64,000 nt of DNA, taken from contig CAXXKA010000004.1 of assembly GCA_963668625.2 (NCBI GenBank), forward strand, positions 192,001 to 256,000, written 5' to 3'. Origin of the DNA: an uncultured candidate division Zixibacteria bacterium. GTDB taxonomy: Bacteria > Zixibacteria > MSB-5A5 > UBA10806 > 4484-95. The position numbers and the translations under genes are program-made. Shown in pieces: positions 1-47,776 of the stretch. A model generated the notes under the pieces. That model did no database searches, was not told the DNA's origin, and saw nothing but the letters and a program-made list of their open reading frames with translations. Each line of letters begins with the position of its first letter. Within the stretch, counting starts at the first letter, position 1.

Positions 1-232
1 TTTCTTTATTAATTCCCGGCTATTTATCTTAATGCAAAGTGCATTCTGAAGGATTTCCCTTGCCATTCAACATTTTTATCTTATTGCATAACAACGAGAT
101 ACCCCACTTATGCAAACCGTTACACATTTCGACCGGATACTGAACAGGTATAATTATACTGTCAAGCAAACGATTCCGTAACGCAATCGTAACTTATTAT
201 ATATAAAGCATTTACAACTATTTACATGATTA

Positions 233-248
233 TGGCACAGTAATTGCA
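233..248 (+). promoter_or_regulatory. sigma54 (-24/-12) promoter of the PEP-CTERM gene
   Basis: TGGCAC-AGTAA-TTGCA matches TGGCAC-N5-TTGCW exactly, 46 bp upstream of ATG 295. Confidence 0.85.
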
Positions 249-294
249 TATTAACTAGTCAAATTATTGAAATCAGTTTAGAAAGGACAGCAAA

Positions 295-1131
295 ATGAAG
301 AAAATCGTCGTAATCGCTCTGGCACTCGCGCTGGTATCCGGCGCTGCCTACGCTGACCCCAGCGGTTATCTATTGAATGATTATTTCGGTGTTAATGATC
401 TGACAGTTGGCAGTGATGGCAACTTCGATATGGATTGGAGCCCTGCAACCGGTTCGTACTCGGTTCAGGATTGGCCGACTAACGGCAACGCTCCCGATCC
501 GGGCCCCCGTTACTTCATCTCCGAGGCTTTCGATCTTGAAGCCACTTATATTGATGTTAACAGAGATCAGGAGATGGTTTATTTCTCGATAGTTACCTCG
601 ATGCCGAACACCGGTTTCTCGCATACCCCGTGGTATGGCAGTTACGTGTTCCGCACCGGCGATATCAAGTTCAATGTCGGTGGCGATCAGTATGTCCTCG
701 GTACTTACGACCAGAGTTATGGTGCCGGCTACTACGGCAATCTCTACCACAATCCCGAAATGGCCTACTATGATGGTCATCGTGGTTTTGGTGAACGCGG
801 CAACCCGATCATGAGCACTAACAACAGTGTTGGCAATGCAATGTCAGTCGGTTCGGATTTCGAGTTCAGTTATAGAGAGTATCTTGATGAAAACGGTAAC
901 TCGGTTTACGAGAACGGTTATGCCACCTACGTAATGGAGGGTTGCATTTCCTTTGACGATTTCGGATTCAACGTTGCCGAAACCGGTATGTCGATGGAAT
1001 TGGCGATGAGCTGCAATAATGATATGCTCGGCACCAGTGTCGATCCCGTCCCGGAGCCGGGTACGATCGCTCTGATGGGCATGGGTCTTCTGGGCCTTTA
1101 CGCCGGTCGTCGTCGCTTTACCAAAAAATAA
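295..1131 (+). CDS. PEP-CTERM sorting domain surface protein
   Basis: Signal peptide (AAYA/D); C-terminal VPEPGT + TM helix + RRRFTKK basic tail; RBS AGGA. Confidence 0.93.
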   Translation: MKKIVVIALALALVSGAAYADPSGYLLNDYFGVNDLTVGSDGNFDMDWSPATGSYSVQDWPTNGNAPDPGPRYFISEAFDLEATYIDVNRDQEMVYFSIVTSMPNTGFSHTPWYGSYVFRTGDIKFNVGGDQYVLGTYDQSYGAGYYGNLYHNPEMAYYDGHRGFGERGNPIMSTNNSVGNAMSVGSDFEFSYREYLDENGNSVYENGYATYVMEGCISFDDFGFNVAETGMSMELAMSCNNDMLGTSVDPVPEPGTIALMGMGLLGLYAGRRRFTKK

Positions 1132-1164
1132 GATTTAAAAATTTCCCGTGATATTCTTCCTTGC

Positions 1165-1197
1165 AGCCGGTCGAAGCCCTTCGATCGGCTCTTTTTA
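1165..1197 (+). terminator. Rho-independent terminator
   Basis: AGCCGGTCGAA..TTCGATCGGCT hairpin followed by a T-run. Confidence 0.75.
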
Positions 1198-1553
1198 TGT
1201 CTGTGATTTTATATAATTAGGGGCGGCGCGAGTAGGTCAGGAGCACTAGATAGAAGCCTCGTGTTAAGGCTGGCAGTTGATATTGGCGGCTGGCAACTGA
1301 AAAGCCTACTCGGGGTTCGACTGACCTGCATATAGAATTGCAACGTTAATTGCATGAATTGACCTATCAGTATCCCGGTAGCCTTGACAAGTGATGATCT
1401 GAATGAGCGATTTATGAGGTCGAAAACTCAGGCGTTTAATCCTACAATGCTAAAAAGATATTATCAATAAAAGAATTCCGGTATGCTATTATTCTGCTTA
1501 AACGATAAATCGACTTTGCCGTATGTCGATTCCTGATAACTAAACTGGTTATT

Positions 1554-1793
1554 CTATGAGGTAGCCTGTTTTTTCTTGTAATCTTCTATCCCCTGCTGAA
1601 TATGGCTCTTGAAGCCATGAGGAGCTACTCGGCCGCAATAACCTGATCCGTCGATATTCGGCTTACATATACGAAAGCACCAGGGCGATCTATTTTTAGT
1701 TAATGGGCATCCCAGATATGTGTATTTTTTAAATCCTTTTCGGATGTTGACTAGTTTGTATCCTTTAGGTGGTTTTTTTAATCCCATTTTCAT
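1554..1793 (-). CDS. Small basic protein with 4 Cys (C-x9-C-x3-C-x9-C), hypothetical
   Basis: GAGGGG RBS before ATG; clustered Cys pattern. Confidence 0.65.
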   Translation of the reverse strand: MKMGLKKPPKGYKLVNIRKGFKKYTYLGCPLTKNRSPWCFRICKPNIDGSGYCGRVAPHGFKSHIQQGIEDYKKKQATS

Positions 1794-2097
1794 CCCTCGT
1801 TGTCTTTTTTAAATACAGATACTATTGCCATCGGTTCTAAAACTATACCTTGTAACCCGCGGTTTCCGACTTATCGTAATCGAATCAGAAACATTATAGA
1901 GTTTATTCTTTTCCCTTATTACTCATTTAAATAATACTTATGTTTAGCCTGGTTCAATATGATTGATTCGTACAATCAACCGATTTATAAGCCCTGCTTT
2001 TATAATTATAAATATATTGTAATTGGATAATACAAATGCGCAAACGGTTGCATTGACAGTATATCACCACCGCCGGCATAGCCTCTAATGCACTATA

Positions 2098-2150
2098 TAT
2101 CAATCACTTATTATTAATTCACAACAAATCAAGTTCGGCATGGATATTGC
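2098..2150 (+). promoter_or_regulatory. IHF site plus sigma54 promoter
   Basis: TATCAATCACTTA (WATCAANNNNTTR) at 2098-2110; CGGCAT-GGATA-TTGC at 2136-2150. Confidence 0.7.
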
Positions 2151-2161
2151 CTTATATGTAA

Positions 2162-2275
2162 GTGCATGGGTGTTAACTGAATTAAATAGTCTGCAAGATG
2201 TAACAGACTGGCGGTTTTACCGCCGAAACGAGGCCAGCCTTTCCTCTCCCTCCTTGGGGCTGGCCTTTATTTTTT
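2162..2275 (+). ncRNA. Candidate sigma54-dependent small RNA
   Basis: Downstream of a -24/-12 promoter; three hairpins; the last is a terminator with a CCUCUCCCUCC loop and U-tail; no credible ORF. Confidence 0.55.
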
Positions 2276-2289
2276 AACTGATTTTCTCT

Positions 2290-2585
2290 TTTCTCGATAC
2301 CAAACTCCGTTTGGTAACACCCGTGTTTGAGAAACTCCGTTTCGATTCTTTGTGGCTAGCAGACGTCCTCGTCTGCTGCATTTGCCACATCCCATTTACT
2401 GCCAAGGGACACACTCGGATGTCTGCCGCCCACAGAAACCTGATCTACAATCTGTCATCCCCATGAAAATGGCGGTTTTATGATTATACCATCATGTACA
2501 ATTAAGAGATTCCTGATTTTGCGAAAATAACAGACGCAGGTAAGGTTCACCTCGGAGTGAAGCGGAGAGGTTAACCTTACGGGAT
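2290..2585. repeat. Cluster of mixed REP-like palindromes
   Basis: ACCAAACTCCGTTTGGT, GTGGCTAGCAGACGTCCTCGTCTGCTGC, and GTAAGGTT..AACCTTAC hairpins. Confidence 0.55.
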
Positions 2586-2618
2586 GCACATAGAAACTAT
2601 CCATCCAAATCAAGTTAC

Positions 2619-3941
2619 TCAATTGAATTTCCCGATCCCCACCAGTGTCGGCATCACCCGTTTATCGTGTTCTTTAGCCGCCCACAGTGCCAGCGCCAGC
2701 GCACATACACCATCCCCGGCATTTATATAGGCCGAATCAAGGGCCCGAAGCTCATCGGCAAGCGACCATGTTGAACCATCCGGTTGTTCGATAGCCTGTT
2801 CGTATAAGGCTACTTCATCGGAGAAAAACGCCCGCTCCAGATTCGCCAGAAGTCGTTCCCTATTACCACCGCCGAAATTGAATCCCTCGGCCGCGATATC
2901 CTCCAGCGAGGCCATGACAACATCACCAATACCGGTCGAATCAATCAGCACCTCACCGCCGTAAGTTCGGTAAAGATGTTTTATCCGGCCGATAATCTCC
3001 GGCCAATCCCGTTGATATCTCTCGACATGTACCACCTGGTATGGAATTTCGGTGATATCGATCACCACGCCAACCGTGTATGTCAGCTTGCGGGCTAAAT
3101 CCCACCCATGCACATAATGGCGTTTGGAGTCATATCCCGATGCCCCTCTGCCCCTCGATATTGCCTTGCCCAGGAGTTCCTCCGGCAGAAGCCTGCCCTC
3201 GAATGAGGAGAATTGCCCCAGTATATGTTGCGCGGCTCTCGCCGGAGTCATCGACCGGCGAAGATAATCAAGCGATTCTTTAGGTAGATACGGGTTATCG
3301 TAAGATGAACCATGATAGACATAGCCGCGTTTTTCTTTTTCTATCATCTTATGGCGATGGTAAAACCAGTTGTAGCCATTAGGAGTGGAACTATAATCGA
3401 GCGAACCGGCTCTGTCGGCCAAACGCATCTTGAGTACGCCCTCAACAACCGCCTCGGGTTGCGGTTCGTAGGCGACCTCATCGAAATTGACATAATCGTA
3501 ATCCTGCCCCAGAAGATACTCCCCACGATTAGCGCTGGTACGCGCCGAAAGCTCCGAGCCGTTTCTAAAGACGATAGTTGCATACGGCGTGGACCTGATT
3601 TTCGAGACCATCGCCTTGATTTTCTTATTCTTCTCCAGCATCCCGATAATTTTGGAGAATATTATCTGCGCCTGATCGACCGTGATACTGACATTCATAG
3701 CCCGGTAATGCCCCGGCTTATCATATGCCAGATTACGAATCTGGAAAATACACCGATGGATTAATTTCAATGCCTGAATCTCCGATTTACCCCATCTATT
3801 GCCGGTGATCAGGGCGTTTTCTTTGCCGATCGAACCGTTTAGCCATTTTATCTGCCCGGGATGAGGCTGGAAATCGAGGTAATGCTTGGCGAAGTGGACA
3901 GGATCGTGAATAGCCTTTCGCCAGGAGGGATTATTTGTCAT
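2619..3941 (-). CDS. terL: Phage-type terminase large subunit (ATPase + RNase H-like nuclease)
   Basis: Adenine-binding PHPGQ, Walker A GNRWGKS, Walker B VNFDE, coupling motif STP, DNPYL linker, nuclease GWDLA / IDSTGIGD / D..CALALA. Confidence 0.9.
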   Translation of the reverse strand: MTNNPSWRKAIHDPVHFAKHYLDFQPHPGQIKWLNGSIGKENALITGNRWGKSEIQALKLIHRCIFQIRNLAYDKPGHYRAMNVSITVDQAQIIFSKIIGMLEKNKKIKAMVSKIRSTPYATIVFRNGSELSARTSANRGEYLLGQDYDYVNFDEVAYEPQPEAVVEGVLKMRLADRAGSLDYSSTPNGYNWFYHRHKMIEKEKRGYVYHGSSYDNPYLPKESLDYLRRSMTPARAAQHILGQFSSFEGRLLPEELLGKAISRGRGASGYDSKRHYVHGWDLARKLTYTVGVVIDITEIPYQVVHVERYQRDWPEIIGRIKHLYRTYGGEVLIDSTGIGDVVMASLEDIAAEGFNFGGGNRERLLANLERAFFSDEVALYEQAIEQPDGSTWSLADELRALDSAYINAGDGVCALALALWAAKEHDKRVMPTLVGIGKFN

Positions 3942-4040
3942 ATGATAGTATTCCGATCTACTTTTATTCAGAGTTTAAAGATAAACTGATGACCCCATCT
4001 TGTATCCGAAAGGCTCGAACGGGTTCACCTGATTATGCAA

Positions 4041-4463
4041 TCACGCCAACTCCTGCTGCCTGATCTCATTGAGTAATTCCAATAACAGGTTTTCGACATC
4101 GGTCTTGTCGGCAATCTTCTGCTTTATCTCGATTGCCTTAAAACCATGCTCCAATTTCAAACTGTATTTTGATTCGGCCAACTCCTCGAATACCCGTCGT
4201 ACTACCTCATCCAAAAACGCGCTATCCGCATTAGCCTCTGTCTTGATAGCCAGCCCATTTTTTTTATCGGAGACGGTCTTTTTCGGTGATTTCTTTTTGG
4301 GCTTCTTTTCGGATTTCGGGGCATGTTCGGCAAAATGATTCGATAAATCATCCTCGGTGATTTTCAAACCACGCCTGTTGGCCCAATTGACCACCCGGTC
4401 AGGACGCCAGTTTCGCTTCTTATTGATTTCGCTTAGCAGATCGCTAGAACAGATATCGCACAT
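4041..4463 (-). CDS. Putative terminase small subunit (N-terminal CxxC..HxxxH Zn/HTH, basic linker, helical C-terminus)
   Basis: Lies between portal and terL; translationally coupled to portal (TGATG overlap); TerS-like architecture. Confidence 0.6.
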   Translation of the reverse strand: MCDICSSDLLSEINKKRNWRPDRVVNWANRRGLKITEDDLSNHFAEHAPKSEKKPKKKSPKKTVSDKKNGLAIKTEANADSAFLDEVVRRVFEELAESKYSLKLEHGFKAIEIKQKIADKTDVENLLLELLNEIRQQELA

Positions 4464-5695
4464 CAGATAATACCCGGCTCGATCTTTTCGAGCTTATCTT
4501 TGGCCTCGTCCTTATCCAATAACCCGGCCTTGTACTGCTCGATAATATTCTCGCCCATAATACTTTCGGCCTTGTAGCGCTCCAGCGAACCGAACACCCG
4601 GCGATTATCGAAACAAACATCAACCTCCCCCGATACTCCGCGTAAAGCCATTTCGAGCTCTAAAAGCCATTTCAAAAAGCCTCGGGCTTTCTCCTGTACC
4701 GCTATAATCTGACGCATCATTAACTCGAATTTGAACTTGGCCCAGGTCTGGGTAGTACCGAAAGAATAGCCCAGCATGAACGGATCGAGATGCATCCCCG
4801 CGCAAATATCCTCAACCAGTGCGCGATGGTACAAATACCAGCCGCTGGTAGCCGTACCCGAGGGGCTGATGGTGTTGATTTTCACGTCATCCCAGGTGAT
4901 TGCCGAATCGGCGGGTTTGAGATCGCCCATCAATGAAACGGTATCATCGAAATAGCGATTAGCCCGTTCGATATAATCTTTGTTCGACTCACCCGGCAGT
5001 TTCTCGGGCTTGGTAAGCTGTACCTGCACCCGCTGATAGCCCGAACGCTCGAGTGACTGCGACATATCGTTTATCAGTTTCTGCTCCAGATGCGAGATAA
5101 ACCCGATAGTGGAAAGCATACTGATACCACGCGGATCGAACGAGGACGAGTCCATACCCGTATAATAAAACGATCCCGGCTCGAGTTTTATTCTGCGAGA
5201 GTCTTTCTCGAAAAATATCTGCCAGCCTTTGCGCGTATTCTCGAACGACAGCATCCGGGCATCGCAGGCGTTGAAATCCTCGATACCGTCTCCGGAGTGA
5301 TTGAGTATGACCTCGCCCGCGAAACAGCCATCGATGAAAAGCGAGCGGAAGAAAAGGTTAACCAGAGATTCGATCCCGCCGGTTTTCTGGTATGCCAACG
5401 GCGAGAGAATCCGGTCGAAATGTTTGACGATTCTCTGTCCGGCCACGCTCGTGGCGCTGTCGAACTTGAACTCGACCGGGGCGGCGCATAGCCGTGTCCA
5501 GAGCCAGATCGAGCCGTTAAGTATGGGGATATTTTCAGTCAAAAATCGATAAATACTTATCCTGTCCTGGCGACGGTAACCATAACCATCGGGCAGATTA
5601 ATCTCGAAACTTCTGATACGAGGATTTTTCGCAGGCGTTAAAGGATCGACAGTTTTCGATCTGGCAAGCAGCGATTTGAGCTTATCTTTTATCAT
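4463..5695 (-). CDS. Phage portal-like protein
   Basis: About 410 aa; portal-like segments (L.IDG.FAGEV, DPRGISML, EDICAGMHLDPFMLG..TT.TWA); in an operon with the terminase. Start moved to ATG 5695 (GGGAG RBS). Confidence 0.78.
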   Translation of the reverse strand: MIKDKLKSLLARSKTVDPLTPAKNPRIRSFEINLPDGYGYRRQDRISIYRFLTENIPILNGSIWLWTRLCAAPVEFKFDSATSVAGQRIVKHFDRILSPLAYQKTGGIESLVNLFFRSLFIDGCFAGEVILNHSGDGIEDFNACDARMLSFENTRKGWQIFFEKDSRRIKLEPGSFYYTGMDSSSFDPRGISMLSTIGFISHLEQKLINDMSQSLERSGYQRVQVQLTKPEKLPGESNKDYIERANRYFDDTVSLMGDLKPADSAITWDDVKINTISPSGTATSGWYLYHRALVEDICAGMHLDPFMLGYSFGTTQTWAKFKFELMMRQIIAVQEKARGFLKWLLELEMALRGVSGEVDVCFDNRRVFGSLERYKAESIMGENIIEQYKAGLLDKDEAKDKLEKIEPGII

Positions 5696-5804
5696 ATCCG
5701 CTCCCGGGGTAAAAATGATATTATGATATTTTAACAATCCCGGATTGTGGAGGATAATGCAGATTGCATCAATAGTATCCGTAGTGTTTTACTATGTGAA
5801 ATAC

Positions 5805-5924
5805 ACCTCAGGATATCGTACCTTCCATCCCGAGGCATCGGGTTGTGGTGAGTTATGTTAATAGATAGTCCTTGTTTACGTGAACAGGATGTGTCAGGAT
5901 GACAGCGGAGCGACATCCTGACAC
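5805..5924. repeat. Composite REP pair (CCTCAGGAT..ATCC(C)GAGG + GTGTCAGGATG..CATCCTGACAC)
   Basis: Two palindromes; homologous composite at 18312-18419. Confidence 0.8.
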
Positions 5925-6092
5925 TCGTTCTCCCATCCTCTGAATCCCAAATCATGTTTGGCATGATATCCCGCTTTATTTATCTATCTGATAATAAGAT
6001 ATAGAATGTGGAAAATCTTGCTTTTCAACCGATCAGTAATAATAGTATACTATACGAAATGTTGTTTACTCGTAAAAGAAATGGATGGTAAG

Positions 6093-7613
6093 ATGAAAGC
6101 TTTATTGATCAGATACCTTATACCCGTCACGATAATTCTGGGTTTATTCATAAACTGCAGCGAAAAATCCGATCTGGCGATTCGCTATGATATGGAGAAA
6201 AAACTCAGTGAGACGGATAAGCTTCAGGAGCAGTTCGCTATTAAGACCGATCAGCTAACCGACTCCGAGCTAAACCAGTTAATCAGTAAATATCTCGAGG
6301 TCGCCGGTATGATCGATTTACCCACTGACAGCGCCGAGGTACAAAAAGCCGATGCCGAACGCAAGCACACCTGGGAACTGGCGATGCTGGCTTACACCAG
6401 GATCGGGGCATTGTATTATGATCATCGCAAAATGTACGATAAAGCATATGAGTATTTCGAGAAAATCGTAAACACACCGGTATCCAGGCCGATCCAGAAA
6501 GGCGCTGCCCTCAACTATATGGCATCCTGCCGAGAGGAGGCCGGAAGCTACGAGGAGGCCGCGGCGATTTATGAAACCCTGGCCGATAGTTACCCTCAAT
6601 ATATCATACCGGAAAATCCCAACATCGATGCTCTAAACGCGCCTATCAAGGTTGCCGAGATGTGGCAAATTTTAGGCGGCGAGCCGAAATATTTTACCAA
6701 GCTCGAGGCCGCACGTAAGTATTACGATAAATTACTGCCCATGCATCCCGGCTCACCGTTCGAGGCCGCCGTGATGGGCAAAATCGTAGGCACGTATCTT
6801 CGCGAGGACAGGTATGATGAGGCGGTCGAGCTTCTGGAGGATACACGGGATGAGAAAACCGGTTTACTCTCTCCCCGTATCATGATGATTCTGGCCGACC
6901 TGTACATGAAAAATATCAAGAACTATCGCAAAGCAGAAAAAGCTTATCGCGATTTCCTGAAACATTACCCTGATTATAGCTCAGCCGGCCAGATGACAAT
7001 GGGACTGGGTGTCGCACTTTATGAGCAGGGAAAGTACAGTCAGGCCAGGGAGGCAATCAAAGATATCGAAAAAATCAAGGGCGTTCGCGGCAGCACGGTC
7101 AGCGAATCGTATTTCCTGACAGCCCTGTGTTATGAGAAGGAAGGCAGTTGGGGCAGGGCGCTAAACCAGTTTAACCTGATCCAGGCGACTTTCGCCGGCA
7201 CAGAAAAAGCGTTCGAGGCCGGTCTTTATGTCGCTAACTATTACCGCAGAAACGGCAAGGATAAACTGGCCGATAACAAATTCAACGAGACAATAGAGTA
7301 TATTACCAAATACACGAATCCGCAAACCTCCAATCCGCTTCTGGCGGCACGGGCCTACGGTTACCTGGCCCGGGCATATACCGAAATGGGCAATCTGGAA
7401 AAAACGATCGAGACGTTAGAAACTGTTTTCAACCAATATCCCCGCTCGCCGGAGGGACGGCTGGCGCCTCTTCGCATAGCGGATTTGTACGAGAACGAAC
7501 AGGGCAAATACCAGGATGCCGCCGACTGGCTGAGAAAGTTCATAGACCAGAACCCCGGCGCGGCTGATACCGTTAAAATAGTAGCGCATATAAAAGAGCT
7601 GGAAGGTAAATAA
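6093..7613 (+). CDS. TPR-repeat lipoprotein
   Basis: Lipoprotein-like signal (LFINC); many TPR repeats (YfiO/BamD/CpoB-like YP.S motifs). Confidence 0.85.
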   Translation: MKALLIRYLIPVTIILGLFINCSEKSDLAIRYDMEKKLSETDKLQEQFAIKTDQLTDSELNQLISKYLEVAGMIDLPTDSAEVQKADAERKHTWELAMLAYTRIGALYYDHRKMYDKAYEYFEKIVNTPVSRPIQKGAALNYMASCREEAGSYEEAAAIYETLADSYPQYIIPENPNIDALNAPIKVAEMWQILGGEPKYFTKLEAARKYYDKLLPMHPGSPFEAAVMGKIVGTYLREDRYDEAVELLEDTRDEKTGLLSPRIMMILADLYMKNIKNYRKAEKAYRDFLKHYPDYSSAGQMTMGLGVALYEQGKYSQAREAIKDIEKIKGVRGSTVSESYFLTALCYEKEGSWGRALNQFNLIQATFAGTEKAFEAGLYVANYYRRNGKDKLADNKFNETIEYITKYTNPQTSNPLLAARAYGYLARAYTEMGNLEKTIETLETVFNQYPRSPEGRLAPLRIADLYENEQGKYQDAADWLRKFIDQNPGAADTVKIVAHIKELEGK

Positions 7614-8737
7614 TGAAACACCTGAGGCTAATAGCATCCGCGATATTCGTTCTAGCTCTCATATTAAACTGCTCGGAAAAACAGGAGCAATCGCTTTCAC
7701 GAAATTGGCCGTGTTTCAAAGCGAATAATTATCGCACCTCTAATAACGGCAACCCCGGATTGAAATTACCCTTGAGCAGATCCTGGATTTTCGAGAACGA
7801 TTCACCGTTCCAATCATCACCGGTAATTTACGATAATATCCTGTACTGCGGGGCGGATAAAGGCCTGTACGCAATCGACCTGGCAACCAAGAAGGTGTTG
7901 TGGAAATTCGAGACGGCCCAAAAAGTTTATTCTACACCGGCTGTAGATAGCGCCATGATTTATTTCGGTTCCTGGGACTACCATTTTTACGCACTCGATA
8001 GGCTTACCGGCAAGTATAAGTGGAGCTATGCCGATACGGGCGCTTTCTCGAGCTCGCCGTTAATTGATGGTGACATGGTATATGTCGGAAATTACAGCGG
8101 CAATGTCTATGGATTCGACAGAACCTACGGTAGCCTGGTTTGGAAATTCACCGCAGGTCATTATGTAGCCAGTTCGCCGGCAGTTTATGATGATAAACTG
8201 CTGATTGGCAGTTCGGATAAACATCTTTATTGTCTCGATAAAAGCGATGGCTCTTTGATCTGGAAATATATTACCAAGGGCGATATCGTATCCTCCCCTG
8301 CTATCGATAGCGCTGCCGGATACGTATACATAGGCAGTCACGACAACAATATATACTGTATCGATATCGACACCGGATCGAAAATCTGGTCATTCGCCAC
8401 CCGCGATATGGTTGCCTCCTCGCCGGCGTTATACGACAACCGCATACTGGTGGGCTCGCTCGATTCCACGTTTTATTGTCTCGATGCCAAAACAGGCGAT
8501 CCGCTATGGAGCTATAAAACGTATGGCGATATCTATTCCAGCCCGACACCGTTCGATAGCGTGGTAGTTTTCGCCTCGGATGATTTGAATGTGTATATGC
8601 TCGATATCAATAATGGCGCGCAGCTTTACGTGTTCGGTCTCGGCGGTGAGACGGCAGGAAATCCCGCACTCTACGGAAGACAGCTATTTTTCGGAGATAA
8701 GAGCGGACGGCTTTACGGTTTTAGCGAGAGATTTTGA
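7613..8737 (+). CDS. PQQ-like beta-propeller repeat lipoprotein (BamB-like fold)
   Basis: LILNC lipobox; repeated SSP...GS.D..YCLD..TG...W motifs; coupled to the TPR gene (TAATG). Confidence 0.9.
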   Translation: MKHLRLIASAIFVLALILNCSEKQEQSLSRNWPCFKANNYRTSNNGNPGLKLPLSRSWIFENDSPFQSSPVIYDNILYCGADKGLYAIDLATKKVLWKFETAQKVYSTPAVDSAMIYFGSWDYHFYALDRLTGKYKWSYADTGAFSSSPLIDGDMVYVGNYSGNVYGFDRTYGSLVWKFTAGHYVASSPAVYDDKLLIGSSDKHLYCLDKSDGSLIWKYITKGDIVSSPAIDSAAGYVYIGSHDNNIYCIDIDTGSKIWSFATRDMVASSPALYDNRILVGSLDSTFYCLDAKTGDPLWSYKTYGDIYSSPTPFDSVVVFASDDLNVYMLDINNGAQLYVFGLGGETAGNPALYGRQLFFGDKSGRLYGFSERF

Positions 8738-11251
8738 TCGCCCGATGACCAGGCGATAGTTGCCGGCGTTATCCGATTCGATACTTATATTACCCAAATG
8801 CTCGATAGCTTTCCTGAGTTTGTAAATATATTTCACCTGGTTTAATCCGCTATCCAGTGAATTTTTATGTAACCAATTATTATCATTATAATATAATTGT
8901 TGAAAATATTTGAACAACCGCGGCTGTAAAATAACCGGGCGTTCATCCAACTCGACTACATAGTTGACCCCGTCACGAATGGCTCTAAGCGGTGGACGGC
9001 AACTTTTCGATATCAGCTTATTATCGGCTTTTAGCTTACGGCAATTATCGGTGCATTCTTTGAAAAGCTTCTCGGCTACGGATTGCGGTATTGCGGTTAG
9101 CAGCGTTTCGAAATCGGAGTCGATTACATCCCTACGTGTATTTATCCCGATAGCCGATAACCTCAGTATGAAATCCCGCTCCAGAAACGGAATCTGCAAC
9201 CTTGCCAGAGAAATTACCTCTTTGGGCACGCAATGACAAATAGCTCGAGCAATTTCTCTCAAATATTTTAGCTGATTTTTATTCAATCCATTCGCTTTGC
9301 CAATATCAATAGCAGCCCGCAACATTTTCGAGAAATACTCGCCATACTTTTTCAATCTCCCCCAACCGACATCATACTTGCGTTCCAACTCGATAGTTGG
9401 GATTGGCTGAATGATATCTACCAACATCATAGTTGTCATCAGCCGCCTCGAATCGACCTCTACCTCGGGATAATCCAAATACTGTTTTAATGGCCCCGTT
9501 TCGTTCTCTTTATGAGCAACCAAACATGAGCGTAAATAAATATCGATAGGCTCCCTGAAAATAACATTCTGTTTCCCTATCAATTCCCTTTGGCATTCGG
9601 GTATTCCCGTGAGATAATACAGCCAGCTAATGAAACCATCCTCGAGCCCATGACGATCGAATCCATCCCTGATAGACGCCGCCGTGTGCAGCTCTATGTT
9701 ATGCGATACGGCCGCCTGTCCTATAGCCGTGCATTCCAGTCGGCAGCCATTAATGGTTGTGAAACCTTGCCTGATTAACTCATCAACGATTTCGGTGGGG
9801 ATTTGCGTCTCGATTTTCTCCGCGAATCCCCGAAGTGATCGCTTAAGCTGATTTTTAGCCTCGCCATAGTCCCGAATGATACCACAGCTAATCAGGCCCA
9901 GTGTGAATAATGCCAGTTGCTCTTTTGGAGAGACCCCGGGCCGAGCGCTGATCGTGTTATTAATGAAGTAATCACGGATATTTTCCCTGTCGTTATCATC
10001 CTCGGCTATAATCACCGCCCGCCCGAAATTATCCTCCTGCCCCAGGCGGCCGGCTCGTCCCGACATCTGGTTGTAATCGTATTGCTTGAGTATCTTCAAT
10101 ACCGGAGTACCATCCAGGGCGCTGTAATATCTCTGGGGATTAATAAACACGTTGCGCGAGGGCAAATTCACCCCCATAGCCAGGGTCGAGGTACATATCA
10201 GCAGACGAATCTCTCCCTCGCGAAAACCAGTCTCGACTATTTTTCGCATCGAAAGCCCCAAATCCGCGTTATGATAGGCTACCCCACTCTTTAAGCATTC
10301 GATCAGAGCCGTCTTCTGCAGGGTTTCCGGCAACAGGTTCAAATTCTCGATTGTTCCTCTTGCCTCGGGAATATCAAAAACCTCGGCAATAATCCGCGCC
10401 AACCCTAAACTGCTCGATCTATCCGGCACGAATATCAAAGCCTGTTCATCATTATTTACAATATACTTTATCGAATTCAATTGATCCGTGTTCAAACCAT
10501 CATGCTCGGACACGATGCAATTATCATTACTTTCAGCCCTAAAATACTCGATACCCTCGGTATAATCGTTATATCTCTTATAGTAAAATTTACCGTTAAA
10601 CAACACTCCCCGGTGAAGTTCAACCGGGCGATTAGTGGAGTTCAAAACGGGGATAGCAAGCCATCTCTCCAGAAAAGAGCATTCCGTGTACCCGCCAAGC
10701 AATCCCACGATTTGGATAGAATCGTTATAGTGACGAACTTTAGCCAGCGCCGATTCGCAGACCAGCCCGCGACCGTTTTCACATATAAGCTGGAACTCAT
10801 CGAATACGACCGTTCCCACCGATTCCAATAGCTTCAAATCGGTTGAACTCAAACCATTAAACATTTCATACACAACGATTGCTATATCATATTTCGCCTT
10901 CAAGAAAGGTTCTTTATTATTAGGATAGTCTGAACTGACAATTAGTATTTTCGACTTTAACTTACGATATCGCTTTCGCAATTCATGATATTTCTCGGCA
11001 GCTATAGCTTTCAAAGGCACGAGTATTATCGCTTTTTGCCTTTTAGCTACCGCCCGCATGGCTGCAAGCTCGCCGCATAATGTCTTGCCCGAGGAGGTAG
11101 GGCCGTTGATCAGCAACGACTTACCATCCAGCAAACCGTAGCTTTTGACAGCTGCAGCCTGTAACGGCAGAAGAGTCCTGATACCATCGTCACGCCACAC
11201 CTCGACCACACCGGGCGGCATACCGAAACTGACTATATCCTCAACCCGCAT
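8684..11251 (-). CDS. Ski2/Hel308-like SF2 helicase with C-terminal winged-helix-like extension
   Basis: Q motif LLPLQ, GPTSSGKT, PLKAIAAEK, DEFQ, RPVEL, YHNADL, TSTLAMGVNLP, QMSGRAGR. Confidence 0.88.
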   Translation of the reverse strand: MRVEDIVSFGMPPGVVEVWRDDGIRTLLPLQAAAVKSYGLLDGKSLLINGPTSSGKTLCGELAAMRAVAKRQKAIILVPLKAIAAEKYHELRKRYRKLKSKILIVSSDYPNNKEPFLKAKYDIAIVVYEMFNGLSSTDLKLLESVGTVVFDEFQLICENGRGLVCESALAKVRHYNDSIQIVGLLGGYTECSFLERWLAIPVLNSTNRPVELHRGVLFNGKFYYKRYNDYTEGIEYFRAESNDNCIVSEHDGLNTDQLNSIKYIVNNDEQALIFVPDRSSSLGLARIIAEVFDIPEARGTIENLNLLPETLQKTALIECLKSGVAYHNADLGLSMRKIVETGFREGEIRLLICTSTLAMGVNLPSRNVFINPQRYYSALDGTPVLKILKQYDYNQMSGRAGRLGQEDNFGRAVIIAEDDNDRENIRDYFINNTISARPGVSPKEQLALFTLGLISCGIIRDYGEAKNQLKRSLRGFAEKIETQIPTEIVDELIRQGFTTINGCRLECTAIGQAAVSHNIELHTAASIRDGFDRHGLEDGFISWLYYLTGIPECQRELIGKQNVIFREPIDIYLRSCLVAHKENETGPLKQYLDYPEVEVDSRRLMTTMMLVDIIQPIPTIELERKYDVGWGRLKKYGEYFSKMLRAAIDIGKANGLNKNQLKYLREIARAICHCVPKEVISLARLQIPFLERDFILRLSAIGINTRRDVIDSDFETLLTAIPQSVAEKLFKECTDNCRKLKADNKLISKSCRPPLRAIRDGVNYVVELDERPVILQPRLFKYFQQLYYNDNNWLHKNSLDSGLNQVKYIYKLRKAIEHLGNISIESDNAGNYRLVIGRSKSLAKTVKPSALISEK

Positions 11252-41301: not shown

Positions 41302-44300
41302 TTATTTGATCAACACCATCTTCTTAGTAATCGTATTATCATTCTGAGAGAGCTTGTAGAAATAGATCCCCGAACTCACCTTATCGCCCGAAGCGTTCGT
41401 GCTGTTCCAGATAACGTTGTGGGTTCCGGCAACCAGTTCCTCATCAACAAGCGAGGTTACTTTCCGGCCGAGGATATCGTAAATATCCAGGCTGACATGC
41501 CCCGACCTCGGCAAGTTAAACATTATCTCGGTAGTCGGATTGAAAGGATTCGGGTAATTTTGGTTTAAGCTGAACACCAGAGGCAACGCCGATTCGTTAT
41601 CGTCATCGATATCAACCGTACCGACTCCCAGACTACAAGCAACAGTATGTGTCCTCTGATAGGGATCGTTAGTGGTGAAATAAATCTCGCCGAAATAATT
41701 TCCATCGGGAAGATCGGTGGCATCGAAAGTGATACCAAGGTTTTGCGAGCCATCCGGGGGGATAGTTCCTGACTGGGGATCTACACTCAGCCAGAATAAC
41801 GGGTATATGAACTCGATTGCGAAATCATCCGGCAGGCCACCAAATAAATCCCTGGGATACCCGAGCCCGACAAATCCATCGGATGATTGAATTCCTATGA
41901 CAGAAATTAATTCACCGAGCGTTACATTGTCGTACTGCATCACTATTGAATTATCATCACCATCGAGAATTACCTGGAAATTGTAATGACCTTGAGGTTC
42001 CATCTCCTCCTTCCAGTTTACCCACGATATGATAAATCGGTTTTCATCAGAATCATGAAAATAAAAGCAGGTTCCATCCGCATTACTCTGCCTCCCCCAC
42101 ATAGCGGCGATAAAATCAGTATTCTCATCTCCATAGACTGGAATACTCAAGGGGTCTGGCATGAACATCGTGCAGGTATCGAAAACCACGCAGCCGCTGA
42201 TAGTGATTGTAACGGCGGTTTTCTCCTCACCGTAATACATGAAAGGCATACCCATCGAAATCGTATCGGAACAGCCCTCCATATCGATGCCGTTAAATGA
42301 TACGGCGGTACCGACATCCGTGATATCGATCCAGTCGTAATCCGGTCCGCCGGGTTCATCCGAATCGTACAGGAAATATCCAAAGCTATCCGGGCCGCTA
42401 GTGGAGGAGATTACATCAAGATCAGTATCCCCCTCTTCCTGAGGTTCATTTGCCGCCAAGATATTTTGCCTTGCGGGATACGTTATGACTCTGGTATCGT
42501 ATTCGAGATCTCCAAGCCCCTCGTTTAAAAGTGGTATAGATTCCATCCGACTATCACCACTTTGTACATCCACATCAACGAAGGTTTGAGAAAACTCCGC
42601 GTCGGGGGCAACAATAGAGGCGCCATCGAACACGAAACCATCGATATACCAGCCATACCAATTTTCCAACTCGCCGCCCGCGCTTCCGAAATGGAATCTG
42701 AGTTGTACGTCTTCATTCACATAGCCATCCAACTCGAACTCTACGAATTGCCAGACAAAAGATTCGCCGCTGAATCCGGGCTCGCCATCAAGAGCCTCAA
42801 GGCTTGAATAGGGATAGCCTCCCACCGGAGTTAATAAATCCCAGGAATCGCCTTCATCGGTTGAAATCTGGAGATTACCGCCATCCCTGCCGGTATAAAT
42901 ATCGAGCCAGTGGTAGAATGATATTGTGGCATTGTTATCGGTAACATGATAAAAAGCGGTGTACAGGGACTGCTCACAACCGTTATCACCACACCAGGGA
43001 TCATAACCGGCAGTTCCGGTACACCAAACTTTCAAGCCATGATAGGGAAGTTGTCGATGGGAAGTTGCCAGTTTCCACAGAGATCCCTCAGGGGCGGTGA
43101 AACCACCATCGGCACGCTCGAACGAATCAAACCACCTTAGCGTTATATCTAACCTGGCGGTATCGGCGGCTGTTACGGCAACAGTATCAAGGAAATAATC
43201 GTGATTGGGACTGAAAGTGTTAATCGTGTACGTTGCGCCGGCAGCGATATTTTCGAATATGTAGTAGCCGTCGCTATCGGTAGAAACGATATCAAGCGGA
43301 GTATCTTCAGCGATAACAGAAATACCCTCAACCGGATTACCGTCCTGATCGGTAGCATAACCGTGCAGAACACCGCTCGCCGCGATCTCGAGTTCGAAAT
43401 TCGCGGTGGTTGTATCCCACGCACTCGTCTCTATGCCTGTTCGAGTAGAGACATAATAACCATAATAACTGGCTGTCAGGGTAAATGAGGAATCGGCTAT
43501 CAGTCGTAATCTGTAATAACCGTTAGCATCGGTAAAAACCTGTTTAGTCGTGCCATCAGCCACTACTAAAGCGCCGGCAACCGGATTATCCGTGGCATCG
43601 TCATAAACGTAGCCATCGATATAACCTATACCCGATGAGGCTAATAAACACGCCTGATAAACATCCAGACAACCCTGGCCATAGCTGTTATCGGGTCCGA
43701 TATCGCCCAGATCAATCGCGCATGCCAGCAGGACTTCTTTAACCTGATCGACATCCAGGTTGGGGCTTGCCTGACGGATTAACGCGACTGCTCCGGCCAC
43801 ATGCGGCGTCGCCATTGAGGTTCCGGACATATAGCCATAACTGTTATTTGGCATAGAGCTTCTAACAATCAACCCCGGGGCTGATATTTCAGGTTTAATA
43901 GCCAGCGCGCTGTCACCAGTACAAAGGCTTGGTCCTCTCGAGCTAAACTCGGCTATCTCCAAATACTCGTTATTGCCGTTAACCGCTCCCACGGAAAAAC
44001 AGTTAAGCGCTGTCGTGGTCCTATCCGCCGGCGATCTCATACTGCTGGGATTCCCCTCGTTTCCAGCGGCAAAAAGTGCTACAGTACCGGCTGCCTCCAG
44101 ATTATCTATATATGTCCAGAACGACTCATCACACGGATAGATCCCCATGAAGTATGGGATCAATCCCCAAGAATTATTCACGACATCGGGATTATCCTGT
44201 GTCTCGGAGTTATTATCGGGATCGACCAACCACTGGAAAGACTCGATGATATCCGATATTGTCGCGTTAGTATTATAAGGATCACGATCAACAGCAGTCG

Positions 44301-45087
44301 AGGCTATCCATTTGGCATCGATAGCAACACCGATAGTATCGCCGGCTTCCGTACGCCCGCAAATCGTTCCCATCGTATGAGTGCCGTGAGAATACGCATC
44401 CCGAGGGAACTCCCAGTTGGTTTCATCGAAAGGATCGAGCCAGCTCTCATCGTAGTCGCCGTCCTCATCGGTATCCCCCAGAAAACGGTCTGCCAGCGCC
44501 GGATGATTGCCATCAACGCCGGTATCGACATTGGACACGACCCTGCCCGCTCCGGTAAACCCGGCAGCCCAGGCTGCGGGAGCGTTAATAGCTTCGAGCC
44601 CGGGTTCTATCGAGGCTGTCAGTGGAATATCCTCCGATGGTACATCCACCGGTTGTATATTCTCTATCTCATACGATAAAGTGATTTCACCGATATCATT
44701 ATTCTCGGTCATTGCGTATACACCATTCGGCGTCGCCGTCACGATTGCCATATTGGCCAGCCACATAAGTTTATAATCCGTAATATACCCCTGAGATTTC
44801 AGTTGCTCGAAATAAACCGAGGCTTCATCTTTTGTTTTGGATGCCGTCTCTTTCAGAGCTGTCACAACCCGCTTGTTACGTTCTGCTAAAGTCGCTCTCT
44901 CAGTTTTTAACTGCTCATCCAGACTACGGATATCGGCTTGTTCGGAAAACATCACAAGCACCTCGACATCCGAATCACTCGCTGAAGTTTGAAGTTGTTT
45001 CTCAAGTGATAGACTGATCTCGCCTGCCAGGCAGGGACAGGTCATCAGGATGGCTAATAATAAGCCCGAGCACATAATTTTAAGCAT
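41302..45087 (-). CDS. Multidomain S8 subtilisin-like serine protease (bacillopeptidase F-like) with NYPNPFN C-terminal domain
   Basis: DTG, HGTHTMG, AAGNEG, GTSMATPH; carboxypeptidase-regulatory-like repeats; NYPNPFNPTT..SGIYFYKL..KMVLIK. Confidence 0.93.
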   Translation of the reverse strand: MLKIMCSGLLLAILMTCPCLAGEISLSLEKQLQTSASDSDVEVLVMFSEQADIRSLDEQLKTERATLAERNKRVVTALKETASKTKDEASVYFEQLKSQGYITDYKLMWLANMAIVTATPNGVYAMTENNDIGEITLSYEIENIQPVDVPSEDIPLTASIEPGLEAINAPAAWAAGFTGAGRVVSNVDTGVDGNHPALADRFLGDTDEDGDYDESWLDPFDETNWEFPRDAYSHGTHTMGTICGRTEAGDTIGVAIDAKWIASTAVDRDPYNTNATISDIIESFQWLVDPDNNSETQDNPDVVNNSWGLIPYFMGIYPCDESFWTYIDNLEAAGTVALFAAGNEGNPSSMRSPADRTTTALNCFSVGAVNGNNEYLEIAEFSSRGPSLCTGDSALAIKPEISAPGLIVRSSMPNNSYGYMSGTSMATPHVAGAVALIRQASPNLDVDQVKEVLLACAIDLGDIGPDNSYGQGCLDVYQACLLASSGIGYIDGYVYDDATDNPVAGALVVADGTTKQVFTDANGYYRLRLIADSSFTLTASYYGYYVSTRTGIETSAWDTTTANFELEIAASGVLHGYATDQDGNPVEGISVIAEDTPLDIVSTDSDGYYIFENIAAGATYTINTFSPNHDYFLDTVAVTAADTARLDITLRWFDSFERADGGFTAPEGSLWKLATSHRQLPYHGLKVWCTGTAGYDPWCGDNGCEQSLYTAFYHVTDNNATISFYHWLDIYTGRDGGNLQISTDEGDSWDLLTPVGGYPYSSLEALDGEPGFSGESFVWQFVEFELDGYVNEDVQLRFHFGSAGGELENWYGWYIDGFVFDGASIVAPDAEFSQTFVDVDVQSGDSRMESIPLLNEGLGDLEYDTRVITYPARQNILAANEPQEEGDTDLDVISSTSGPDSFGYFLYDSDEPGGPDYDWIDITDVGTAVSFNGIDMEGCSDTISMGMPFMYYGEEKTAVTITISGCVVFDTCTMFMPDPLSIPVYGDENTDFIAAMWGRQSNADGTCFYFHDSDENRFIISWVNWKEEMEPQGHYNFQVILDGDDNSIVMQYDNVTLGELISVIGIQSSDGFVGLGYPRDLFGGLPDDFAIEFIYPLFWLSVDPQSGTIPPDGSQNLGITFDATDLPDGNYFGEIYFTTNDPYQRTHTVACSLGVGTVDIDDDNESALPLVFSLNQNYPNPFNPTTEIMFNLPRSGHVSLDIYDILGRKVTSLVDEELVAGTHNVIWNSTNASGDKVSSGIYFYKLSQNDNTITKKMVLIK

Positions 45088-46510: not shown

Positions 46511-47776
46511 CACTAGTGTCCGGGCTTTGAGGCTGGCTTGACAGACCTCCTATAATAAGGGTGTAAACGCTAATTATAACACCTTTGTTTACAGGAGGTT
46601 AAAAATGCAAGGGAAGGTTACAATACTTCGCCAGATAACGCAAATGATTTCTCGATACGATTTCCAAAAAGCAGTTTCGACTGGCAAAGGGCGGCATTTC
46701 ACGGTTTCTTTCGGCTACTGGTCGCACCTGGTGGCGATGATATTCGGGCAATTATCGGAGCAGCAATCGCTGCGTGATCTGGTCTTGAATCTTTCCCGTC
46801 AGGCGCATAGGTTTTACCATCTGGGTATGTCAAAGATACGCCGTTCGACTTTTTCGGATGCCAACAATCATCGGCCCTCGGCAATATACGAGAACTTGTT
46901 TTACATATTATTGAATCGTTACGGTTGTCATTTTCAAGGCAAAAACCGGAAGCTGGGGAATAAATTATACTCAGTTGATTCGACGGTCATAGATTTGTGT
47001 CTGGGGTTATTTTATTGGGCTAAATTCAGAACGACCAAGGCCGGTGTCAAGCTTCATGTCAGGTTAAACCATGATGGTTACATCCCTGATTTTGCGGTTG
47101 TCACCAATGCCAATATTCATGATTCCAGAGTCAGGAAGATGTTCAATTTACCGGCTGGCAGTATCGTGACTTTCGACAAAGGCTACAATGACTACAGTCT
47201 TTTCAAGTTATTAAATGATAAGGGGATAATCTTTGTCACGCGGCAGAAGAATAACGCTAAATACAAAGTAATCAAACGGTGTAGAACTAATCGTAAGCAA
47301 GGAGTCACCTCCGATCATTGGATTGAATTTACCGGTTTTTACTCCAAGCAAAAATGTTCGATTAGGCTGAGACGAATCCGTTATATCGATAAAGAAACCG
47401 GTAAAGTTTATGTATTCCTGACCAATGATTTCAAACATGCCGCCTCGACTATTGCCGACATTTATAAGCAGCGCTGGCAGATAGAATTGTTTTTTAAAGC
47501 GTTAAAACAGAACCTTGTGATCAAGACTTTCTGGGGTACCTCCAAGAACGCAGTATATTCCCAGATCTGGGTGGCTTTGATAATCTATTTGTTAATGAGC
47601 GCGCTGAAATACAAATACAAAATATCGGCCTCAGTTGGAAAGTTAATTCAGAGAATCCGGTCATTCGTGTTTGAAAAAGATGATGTCCTGAGATTCCTTA
47701 AAGACCAAATACCAATCCCAATACAAATCGCTCAAACATCTCAAATTAACCTGTCCCTAAAGGCCGGACACTAGTG
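46511..47776 (+). mobile_element. IS4-family insertion sequence
   Basis: TIRs CACTAGTGTCCGG / CCGGACACTAGTG; 9-bp TSD AATACCTTT at 46502-46510 and 47777-47785. Confidence 0.95.
46605..47774 (+). CDS. IS4-family DDE transposase
   Basis: VDST, FDKGY, YKQRWQIELFFK (YREK motif). Confidence 0.95.
   Translation: MQGKVTILRQITQMISRYDFQKAVSTGKGRHFTVSFGYWSHLVAMIFGQLSEQQSLRDLVLNLSRQAHRFYHLGMSKIRRSTFSDANNHRPSAIYENLFYILLNRYGCHFQGKNRKLGNKLYSVDSTVIDLCLGLFYWAKFRTTKAGVKLHVRLNHDGYIPDFAVVTNANIHDSRVRKMFNLPAGSIVTFDKGYNDYSLFKLLNDKGIIFVTRQKNNAKYKVIKRCRTNRKQGVTSDHWIEFTGFYSKQKCSIRLRRIRYIDKETGKVYVFLTNDFKHAASTIADIYKQRWQIELFFKALKQNLVIKTFWGTSKNAVYSQIWVALIIYLLMSALKYKYKISASVGKLIQRIRSFVFEKDDVLRFLKDQIPIPIQIAQTSQINLSLKAGH

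Follow-up and report, generated by a model that had tools for sequence, protein, structure and literature searches.

A phage-type head, tail and packaging gene cluster of the phylum Zixibacteria as a candidate domesticated short-tailed particle with gene transfer agent-like function

The packaging genes and the cluster to which they belong

Close to the left end of the window analysed here (a 64-kb stretch, G000:C4:192001-256000, in which G000 is the source genome of an uncultured Zixibacteria bacterium and other G numbers are the genomes of relatives) lie three phage-type DNA packaging genes, all on the minus strand. They code for a portal protein (4463..5695), a small protein of 140 aa (4041..4463) and the large terminase, TerL (2619..3941). 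An earlier note, made from the letters of the window, described them as intact, co-oriented and stand-alone. All three open reading frames (ORFs) are indeed open and run in one direction, but the operon appears to stand alone only because the window edge cuts the cluster. Genes for a protease-like protein, a cement-like protein, the major capsid protein (MCP) and eight more cluster members follow on the same strand, the first of them with its start codon 11 bases left of window base 1. The whole cluster spans ~14.7 kb (C4:183284-197964), with the packaging genes at one end and the remainder left of the window, where coordinates are those of L003, DNA fetched past the left edge (C4:181001-201000; L003 coordinate = window coordinate + 11000). 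In G000 the order is portal, small helical protein, TerL, an insertion, g244, g94, g137, g138, MCP, g475, g127, g270, g443, g462 and g128. Homologue counts given below for these genes come from searches with iterated profile hidden Markov models (HMMs) over 102 loci.

The portal protein, the first gene of the cluster, has 410 aa when read from the ATG at 5695 (the longest ORF, of 424 aa, starts from a TTG at 5737). It matches phrog_3753 (E 1.5e-32) and phrog_30703 (E 4.4e-16), has no match in Pfam, and has homologues in 64 of the 102 loci. TerL, with 440 aa, carries both an ATPase and a nuclease domain; its matches are to phrog_2 (E 4.9e-27) and, at 25.3 bits where the cut-off is 22, to PF03237 (E 1.4e-5). 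Among 28 TerL sequences the Walker A motif (G47-S53) is nearly invariant, while D149, D154 and E155 and the acidic residues of the nuclease (D281, D334, D340 and D410) are invariant, the motif names being our own reading. The source genome has a single copy of TerL.

The small protein is encoded between these two, in an intact ORF whose start overlaps the portal stop as TGATG at 4463, as seen in the earlier note. It is made up of a lineage-specific N-terminal region with one CxxC, a lysine-rich linker and a C-terminal helical domain of ~60 aa, and conservation among 66 homologues is confined to residues ~80-140. No Pfam family was found for it, and phrog_614, a family of unknown function, is matched at E 0.0067. 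The zinc finger claimed for this protein, or any other N-terminal DNA-binding domain, was considered and discarded: the single CxxC is restricted to the window's lineage, in a region that the 66 homologues do not conserve. Neither is the label of small terminase subunit (TerS) established. The protein is adjacent to TerL in 20 of the 66 homologous loci (between portal and TerL, exclusively in the window's clade) and located after g127 in the other 46. A predicted complex of TerL with the small protein obtained weak support, with a median score of 0.33 versus 0.00 for the best control (partner predicted local distance difference test [pLDDT] at least 58, contact agreement at least 53%); the mark for such predictions is attained by 58 of 80 solved complexes as against 2 of 110 mismatched pairs, and at scores of 0.60 or less by 7 of the 80 only. 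The small protein may have a TerS-like role. In the portion of a review cited here, putative TerS proteins of known gene transfer agents (GTAs) are described as having no DNA-binding domain (PMC11841831).

The head genes come next in the cluster. The protease-like g244 (L003:10256-10990, minus strand, as are all genes of this block) matches phrog_16951 (E 1.3e-14) and has homologues in 80 loci, with an invariant H83, S136 and CxxC..CxH motif. Its nearest named Atlas clusters are prohead proteases of the Peptidase_S78/S77 type, which we take as a lead only, and in the commoner of the two architectures described below it forms the N-terminal part of a ~620-aa protein. Two small genes, g94 (L003:9968-10252; 78 loci) and g137 (L003:9568-9981; 50 loci), precede the cement-like g138 (L003:9139-9555; 90 loci), which matches the "virion structural protein" family phrog_4588 (E 5.4e-9) and resembles DUF2190/Phage_cement clusters in the Atlas, again only as a lead. 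The MCP (L003:8026-9132), single-copy in G000, is the most widely recovered member of the cluster (94 loci) and matches phrog_3922 with an E value of 8.1e-61; its match to PF25209 (E 1.3e-5, 26 bits) falls below the 27-bit cut-off.

Two of the genes beyond the MCP were assigned tentatively by fold. The AlphaFold2 (AF2) model of g475 (L003:6549-7976; homologues in 92 loci) has a pLDDT of 92.6 and is predicted to combine a sialidase-like propeller with a beta-sandwich. Its best match in the PDB is a chain of the portal-tail complex of Legionella phage LME-1 (E 7.1e-11), followed by cellular sialidases, and several of its BFVD matches are labelled P22 Gp10, so that it may be a propeller hub. Two distant loci (L082 and L090) have two consecutive g475-like ORFs, which could be a duplication or a frameshift. 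After g127 (L003:6169-6552; 79 loci) comes the putative adaptor g270 (L003:5360-6172; 82 loci; AF2 model pLDDT 84.7). In a representative-wide VIA search, 8 of the top 10 rows for g270 were phage neck or adaptor chains with Z of 8.1-9.9 (Mu 9.9, GP4 8.9, T4 gp13/14 8.8, HK97 gp6 8.3; the RcGTA virion chain 6tba_2A scored 7.7), values of 8-10 being middling for helical folds, for which Z below ~13 can reflect a common arrangement. Foldseek gave only weak and mixed matches for g270, and the profiles of g244 and g270 found no PDB sequence at E ≤1.

The cluster ends with the variable g443 (L003:4096-5427; 28 loci), g462 (L003:2708-4096; 69 loci) and g128 (L003:2284-2670; 48 loci). A CarboxypepD_reg-like domain was found by Pfam in all five g462 orthologues examined, in one of them above the cut-off, and in the commoner architecture this protein reaches ~750 aa. 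The last gene, g128, has a hydrophobic N-terminal region and a charged tail (hydropathy maximum 2.06), from which it may be holin-like. Across 45 orthologues of the unannotated genes, Pfam gave nothing beyond this CarboxypepD_reg and a sub-threshold BNR_2 in three of seven g475 orthologues. Since adaptor-like and hub-like folds are among those predicted, and since the cluster has no recognised family of tape-measure or tail-tube proteins, we read the particle, with moderate confidence, as short-tailed.

Distribution, gene order and co-divergence with the host

The presence of the module in relatives, on which the earlier note had staked its reading beforehand, extends to nearly the entire phylum. 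TerL was found in 39 of 41 relatives (32 of 33 high-quality genomes, 25 of 27 genera), almost always as a single copy and with no stops inside the matches, and its identity to the G000 protein declines stepwise from 78% within the genus to 65-75% within the family, 53-58% within the order and 40-50% within the class. With a profile built from 13 capsid proteins, the MCP was detected in 255 of 285 genomes of the phylum (189 of the 198 of high quality; 118 of 130 genera), again nearly always as one match. A search of a protein collection with the MCP returned 874 clusters, the best 120 of which are at least 58% identical, and all seven that bear an organism name are Zixibacteria entries annotated as "hypothetical protein".

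Gene order is conserved as well. Searches by tblastn with the G000 proteins found the same order in 13 of 20 TerL-centred loci, the 13 being those that hold head genes, and the HMM searches found it in long MCP-centred loci too, with the portal first across the phylum; the unusual position of the portal noticed in the window is thus real. Two architectures could be distinguished. That of the window's clade is portal, small protein, TerL, g244, g94, (g137), g138, MCP, g475, g127, g270, (g443), g462 and g128, while most of the phylum has portal, TerL, g244, g94, (g137), g138, MCP, g475, g270, g127, small protein, (g443), g462 and g128.

In some genomes the cluster is broken into separate loci. 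In G021, TerL (C1:2,987,135) and the MCP (C1:2,895,948) are 91 kb apart, with both parts intact and the packaging operon surrounded by cytochrome, Rieske/cytochrome b and NrfD genes. Shorter separations occur in G019 (34 kb, same strand) and, on opposite strands, in G004 (11 kb) and G022 (20 kb). Four further genomes (G009, G031, G032 and G040) have no head gene in the 8-14 kb fetched downstream of TerL, and among the 48 MCP-centred loci with at least 9 kb of upstream DNA, TerL is present in 36 and not within 9 kb in 12. The cluster, then, tolerates both the insertion of host genes and the physical separation of its halves, and an element that excises and packages itself could not work from loci that are split and yet intact. 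A detached packaging operon does exist in relatives such as G021; in G000 itself the capsid and short-tail genes adjoin the packaging genes. In G022, TerL (C6:1336546-1337901) and rpoB are both found in several adjacent pieces, which suggests frameshift-type assembly errors and not gene decay.

These genes are under selection. All 13 conserved genes of the cluster are open in G000 and its relatives, with no stops in the listed matches. In the comparison of G013 with G021, dN/dS is 0.047 for TerL, 0.042 for the portal and 0.052 for rpoB, and ranges from 0.03 to 0.21 over 11 cluster genes, although the cluster is contiguous in the first genome and split in the second. Purifying selection on the packaging genes is as strong as that on rpoB. 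The estimate rests on a single comparison because the remaining pairs are saturated (pS ~0.75 versus pN 0.10-0.38). A decaying, defective prophage remnant with no present function could explain why the cluster has no lysogeny or replication module and why in G000 a host gene and 825 bp of non-coding DNA lie within it. Such a remnant is refuted by the conservation and selection data, with 13 conserved genes still open at these dN/dS values and the cluster retained across a phylum in which RpoB has diverged to 64% identity, and we regard it as scarcely credible.

The cluster also diverges along with its hosts. Identity of the MCP to that of G000 is 82.9% within the genus, versus 82.8% for RpoB, and 53-61% versus 64-66% in the far members of the class (lowest values 53.4% and 63.8%), so that the degree of conservation of the capsid protein is about equal to that of RpoB. 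The p-distances of TerL plus portal correlate with those of RpoB (Mantel r 0.94, 171 pairs from 19 genomes), with none of 9999 permutations as high. FastTree trees of the two data sets agree on two big clades and on the pairs G000/G001, G006/G009, G013/G021, G028/G037 and G030/G039.

Matches to known phages are few and distant. Among the 50,697 phage records of INPHARED, only five matched the MCP, all of them uncultured gut contigs with at most 33% identity. The full-length phage match of TerL was Meiothermus phage MMP17 (27.7%), and a shorter match covering 68% of the query reached 31.7%. The 2.9 million contigs of IMG/VR contained one related locus, with an MCP at 59% identity. In these collections the cluster does not appear to be nested among known phages, and the nesting within recent free-phage sequences that would have spoken for a prophage was not seen.

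The surroundings lack the marks of an integrated element. In agreement with the earlier note, Pfam scans of the other window ORFs of at least 100 aa found no capsid, tail, integrase or lysis families, and the other genes of the window are ordinary cellular genes and two transposases. In ~20 kb to the left and right of it, Pfam and PHROG searches of the ORFs detected no family of integrases, recombinases, repressors or replication proteins, several small ORFs being unannotated. No tRNA was detected in the 20 kb around the cluster, and no att-like repeats flank it, the longest repeats being of chance size (29 nt at 79% complementarity, 26 nt at 85% identity). Composition is host-like, as had been claimed: the GC content of the cluster is 48.8%, while the genome has 45.2%, with an sd of 2.1% among windows of the same size, and the tetranucleotide distance is equalled or exceeded by 10.7% of 150 random windows.

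An active temperate phage was rejected. More subtly, the cluster could belong to a temperate or cryptic phage family that integrates repeatedly at one conserved site in Zixibacteria, its vertical signal being phage-host co-speciation; the genes are all of phage structural type and in a phage-like order, one IMG/VR contig has an MCP at 59% identity, and the cluster and RpoB trees differ at some nodes. We consider this very improbable and largely refuted. Neither in nor beside the cluster is there an integrase, att repeat, tRNA, repressor or replication gene; the cluster is single-copy in nearly all genomes; host genes have been inserted inside it, and it can be split by up to 91 kb with both parts intact. 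In addition, a capsid protein conserved about like RpoB has only five weak matches in the INPHARED records.

The cluster was already present in an early ancestor of Zixibacteria and has passed vertically to its descendants ever since, as one locus in the chromosome and in a single copy. That it is a domesticated, vertically inherited particle locus we hold to be very probable, and here the preference of the earlier note for a host-retained, GTA-like system over a decaying prophage is borne out by conserved order, purifying selection and broadly congruent trees. Several observations nevertheless weigh against our interpretation or parts of it. The MCP was not found in 30 of the 285 genomes, nine of them among the 198 of high quality; the 30 include both members of family f6, so the system is dispensable. 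The FastTree topologies of cluster and RpoB differ at weakly supported nodes (G003/G004, G019 and G024/G032), and occasional transfer within the phylum may account for these differences. Synonymous divergence is saturated in all but one genome pair, the GC content of the cluster is 1.7 sd over the genome mean, and the cluster holds no established TerS. Tail functions are assigned from fold matches, and in the case of the g475 propeller cellular sialidases are matched about equally with phage proteins. Finally, matching stretches were confirmed in public genome records for 241 of 264 pattern matches, and 26 of the best 80 of these records were assigned by their submitters to other taxa (24 Ignavibacteria-type, 2 Acidobacteriota-type, next to 44 Zixibacteria, 1 GN15 and 9 "uncultured bacterium"). 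Of those labelled as Ignavibacteria, at least two (L066 and L073) seem to be the same as genomes G037 and G026 of the window's class, and their labels look like submitter defaults.

The insertion and the neighbouring genes

A lineage-specific insertion splits the cluster of G000 between TerL and g244, where order-level relatives (G010 and G012) have only ~450 bp from TerL to the next cluster gene. It consists of an 825-bp non-coding spacer (1794..2618) with no ORF of 60 aa or more and no Rfam match, a 79-aa ORF rich in cysteine and lysine (1554..1793, minus strand) and a gene for a PEP-CTERM protein on the opposite strand (295..1131, plus strand; PF07589, E 8.4e-8). A last spacer at the window edge (1..294) leads to the remaining cluster outside the window. 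The 79-aa ORF is not a conserved cluster member, has no homologue in the other 101 loci and no Pfam or PHROG match, and may be no gene at all. The PEP-CTERM gene is placed alike in G001 and G003, between TerL and the head genes. A homologue divergent from the portal and within 5 kb of it occurs in 9 of 19 loci with enough upstream DNA (e.g., L109:1682-2488), beside a TPR gene, so this protein may be conserved context or an associated envelope protein.

The divergent neighbour of the portal in the window is a TPR protein (6006..7613, plus strand; TPR families in Pfam). Of the 19 loci for which 3.5 kb or more of DNA upstream of the portal is available, 12 have a homologue placed in this way, either as conserved chromosomal context or as an associated gene. 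At the other end of the cluster, a 726-aa protein is convergent on g128 in 16 of 29 loci. We found no Rfam match at E ≤0.1 in L003:2000-17100. A scan of window positions 1-6200 gave 17 promoter-like and 7 terminator-like sequences and is uninformative, because shuffled DNA gives similar counts (12.5, sd 3.7, and 5.4, sd 2.2). No RNA sequencing runs with L003:8026-16737 were listed, which is evidence neither for nor against expression.

Other features of the region were recorded in passing. Two very large subtilases with CarboxypepD_reg domains, one of which ends in a type IX secretion system (T9SS) sorting tail, are encoded at window positions 41302-45087 (1261 aa, minus strand) and at L001:6629-10924 (1431 aa, plus strand), and several relatives likewise have a subtilase-like gene downstream of the cluster. 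The two transposase genes of the window (46605-47774 and 60529-61800, both on the plus strand) are of the DDE_Tnp_1 with DUF4372 and Mutator families. Low-GC stretches occur at 13-14 kb (28%) and 52-53 kb (28%). An 855-aa DEAD/Helicase_C protein is encoded ~3 kb upstream of the portal (8684-11251, minus strand) and is not kept beside the cluster in relatives.

The character of these neighbours bears on what a domesticated particle might do. It could serve other ends than gene transfer, such as killing or competition, the export of DNA for a biofilm matrix or the delivery of a specific cargo. All the evidence for domestication fits such a particle equally well, and the conserved neighbours are of secreted or envelope type (PEP-CTERM, TPR and subtilase-like proteins); within the cluster, the N-terminus of g462 is hydrophobic and the sialidase-like propeller of g475 might be enzymatic. 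We nonetheless think a particle of this kind unlikely, given that a portal and a conserved TerL whose ATPase and nuclease residues are intact imply the packaging of DNA, and that no cargo gene is evident. Killing particles of the tailocin type are not known to have heads or terminases, which also counts against it.

Comparison with known systems and proposed function

The closest known kind of system, as judged from the genes, would be a GTA. The GTAs, or viriforms, listed in the cited portion of the review are RcGTA of Alphaproteobacteria, BaGTA, VSH-1, Dd1 and VTA (PMC11841831). Like them, the Zixibacteria locus is a chromosomal cluster of ~15 kb with phage head, tail and packaging genes and no replication or integration genes, has been passed on vertically throughout a large clade, where purifying selection acts on it, and tolerates being split into several loci. 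A small terminase-associated protein with no conserved DNA-binding domain would also fit the GTA TerS as portrayed in that portion of the review. Unlike the known GTAs, it would derive from an independent domestication in another phylum, with phrog_3753, phrog_3922 and phrog_2 as the nearest phage families; its portal comes first, and a short tail is indicated by the adaptor-like and hub-like proteins. To RcGTA the only likeness seen is the fold match of g270 to the virion chain given above.

The cluster resembles T7/P22-like phages, LME-1 for example, in having a portal and an HK97-type capsid together with a cement or decoration protein, and putatively also in its adaptor-like and propeller hub- or nozzle-like proteins. 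The tail of LME-1 is described, in the section of the report cited, as T7-like and composed of portal, adaptor, nozzle and fibres (PMC12407071). In contrast to these phages, the cluster lacks genes for DNA or RNA polymerase, replication, integration or a lysis cassette, is at most 33% identical to any phage record at the protein level, and is fixed in host chromosomes. It has in common with prophages that phage structural genes lie inside a bacterial chromosome, but it differs from ordinary and defective ones in having no integrase or att site and no pseudogenes, in a distribution that is not patchy and in co-diverging with its host. A T7/P22-like short-tailed phage is the probable origin of the cluster, with the moderate confidence that applies to the tail type.

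The conserved machinery suggests how such a particle could be made and used. The host would produce capsids, the protease would mature the MCP shell and the cement protein would decorate it. TerL would then dock on the portal, pump DNA in by ATP hydrolysis and cut it with its nuclease domain, possibly with the small protein acting as a terminase small subunit devoid of sequence specificity. The adaptor and the hub would close the head and form the short tail, and the variable proteins would bind recipient cells. Because the element can neither replicate nor excise, the packaged DNA would be host DNA, and the most likely function would in turn be GTA-like DNA exchange. Particle formation, packaging and transfer are all deduced from gene content.

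Taken as a whole, the statement that the cluster represents a phylum-old domesticated short-tailed phage particle with a GTA-like function is one that we favour, with appreciably less assurance than its domestication and vertical inheritance. A stronger version can be offered only tentatively, and we would sooner doubt it than rely on it: that all Zixibacteria have a short-tailed particle of their own for packaging DNA, domesticated a single time ahead of the radiation of the phylum and independently of all known GTAs, through which they exchange chromosomal DNA, its halves working from separate loci and its small protein serving as a specificity-free terminase subunit. If this were true, the particle would be the first viriform of podovirus type to be retained by a whole phylum.

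We found no published description of the cluster in the literature on Zixibacteria in combination with gene transfer agents, terminases or prophages. Public records annotate its genes as "hypothetical protein", and virus-mining tools will mis-call it as a prophage, as the single IMG/VR contig illustrates. Whether GTAs are outliers or prevalent across clades is a question raised in the cited portion of the review (PMC11841831). Experimentally known GTAs come from a handful of lineages, and the cluster described here would add an independent phage domestication that has become fixed throughout a phylum of uncultured sediment dwellers. Should the particles contain host DNA, Zixibacteria would have in them a major route for gene flow, and the exaptation of a virus into an organelle-like structure would gain a second model that spans a large clade.

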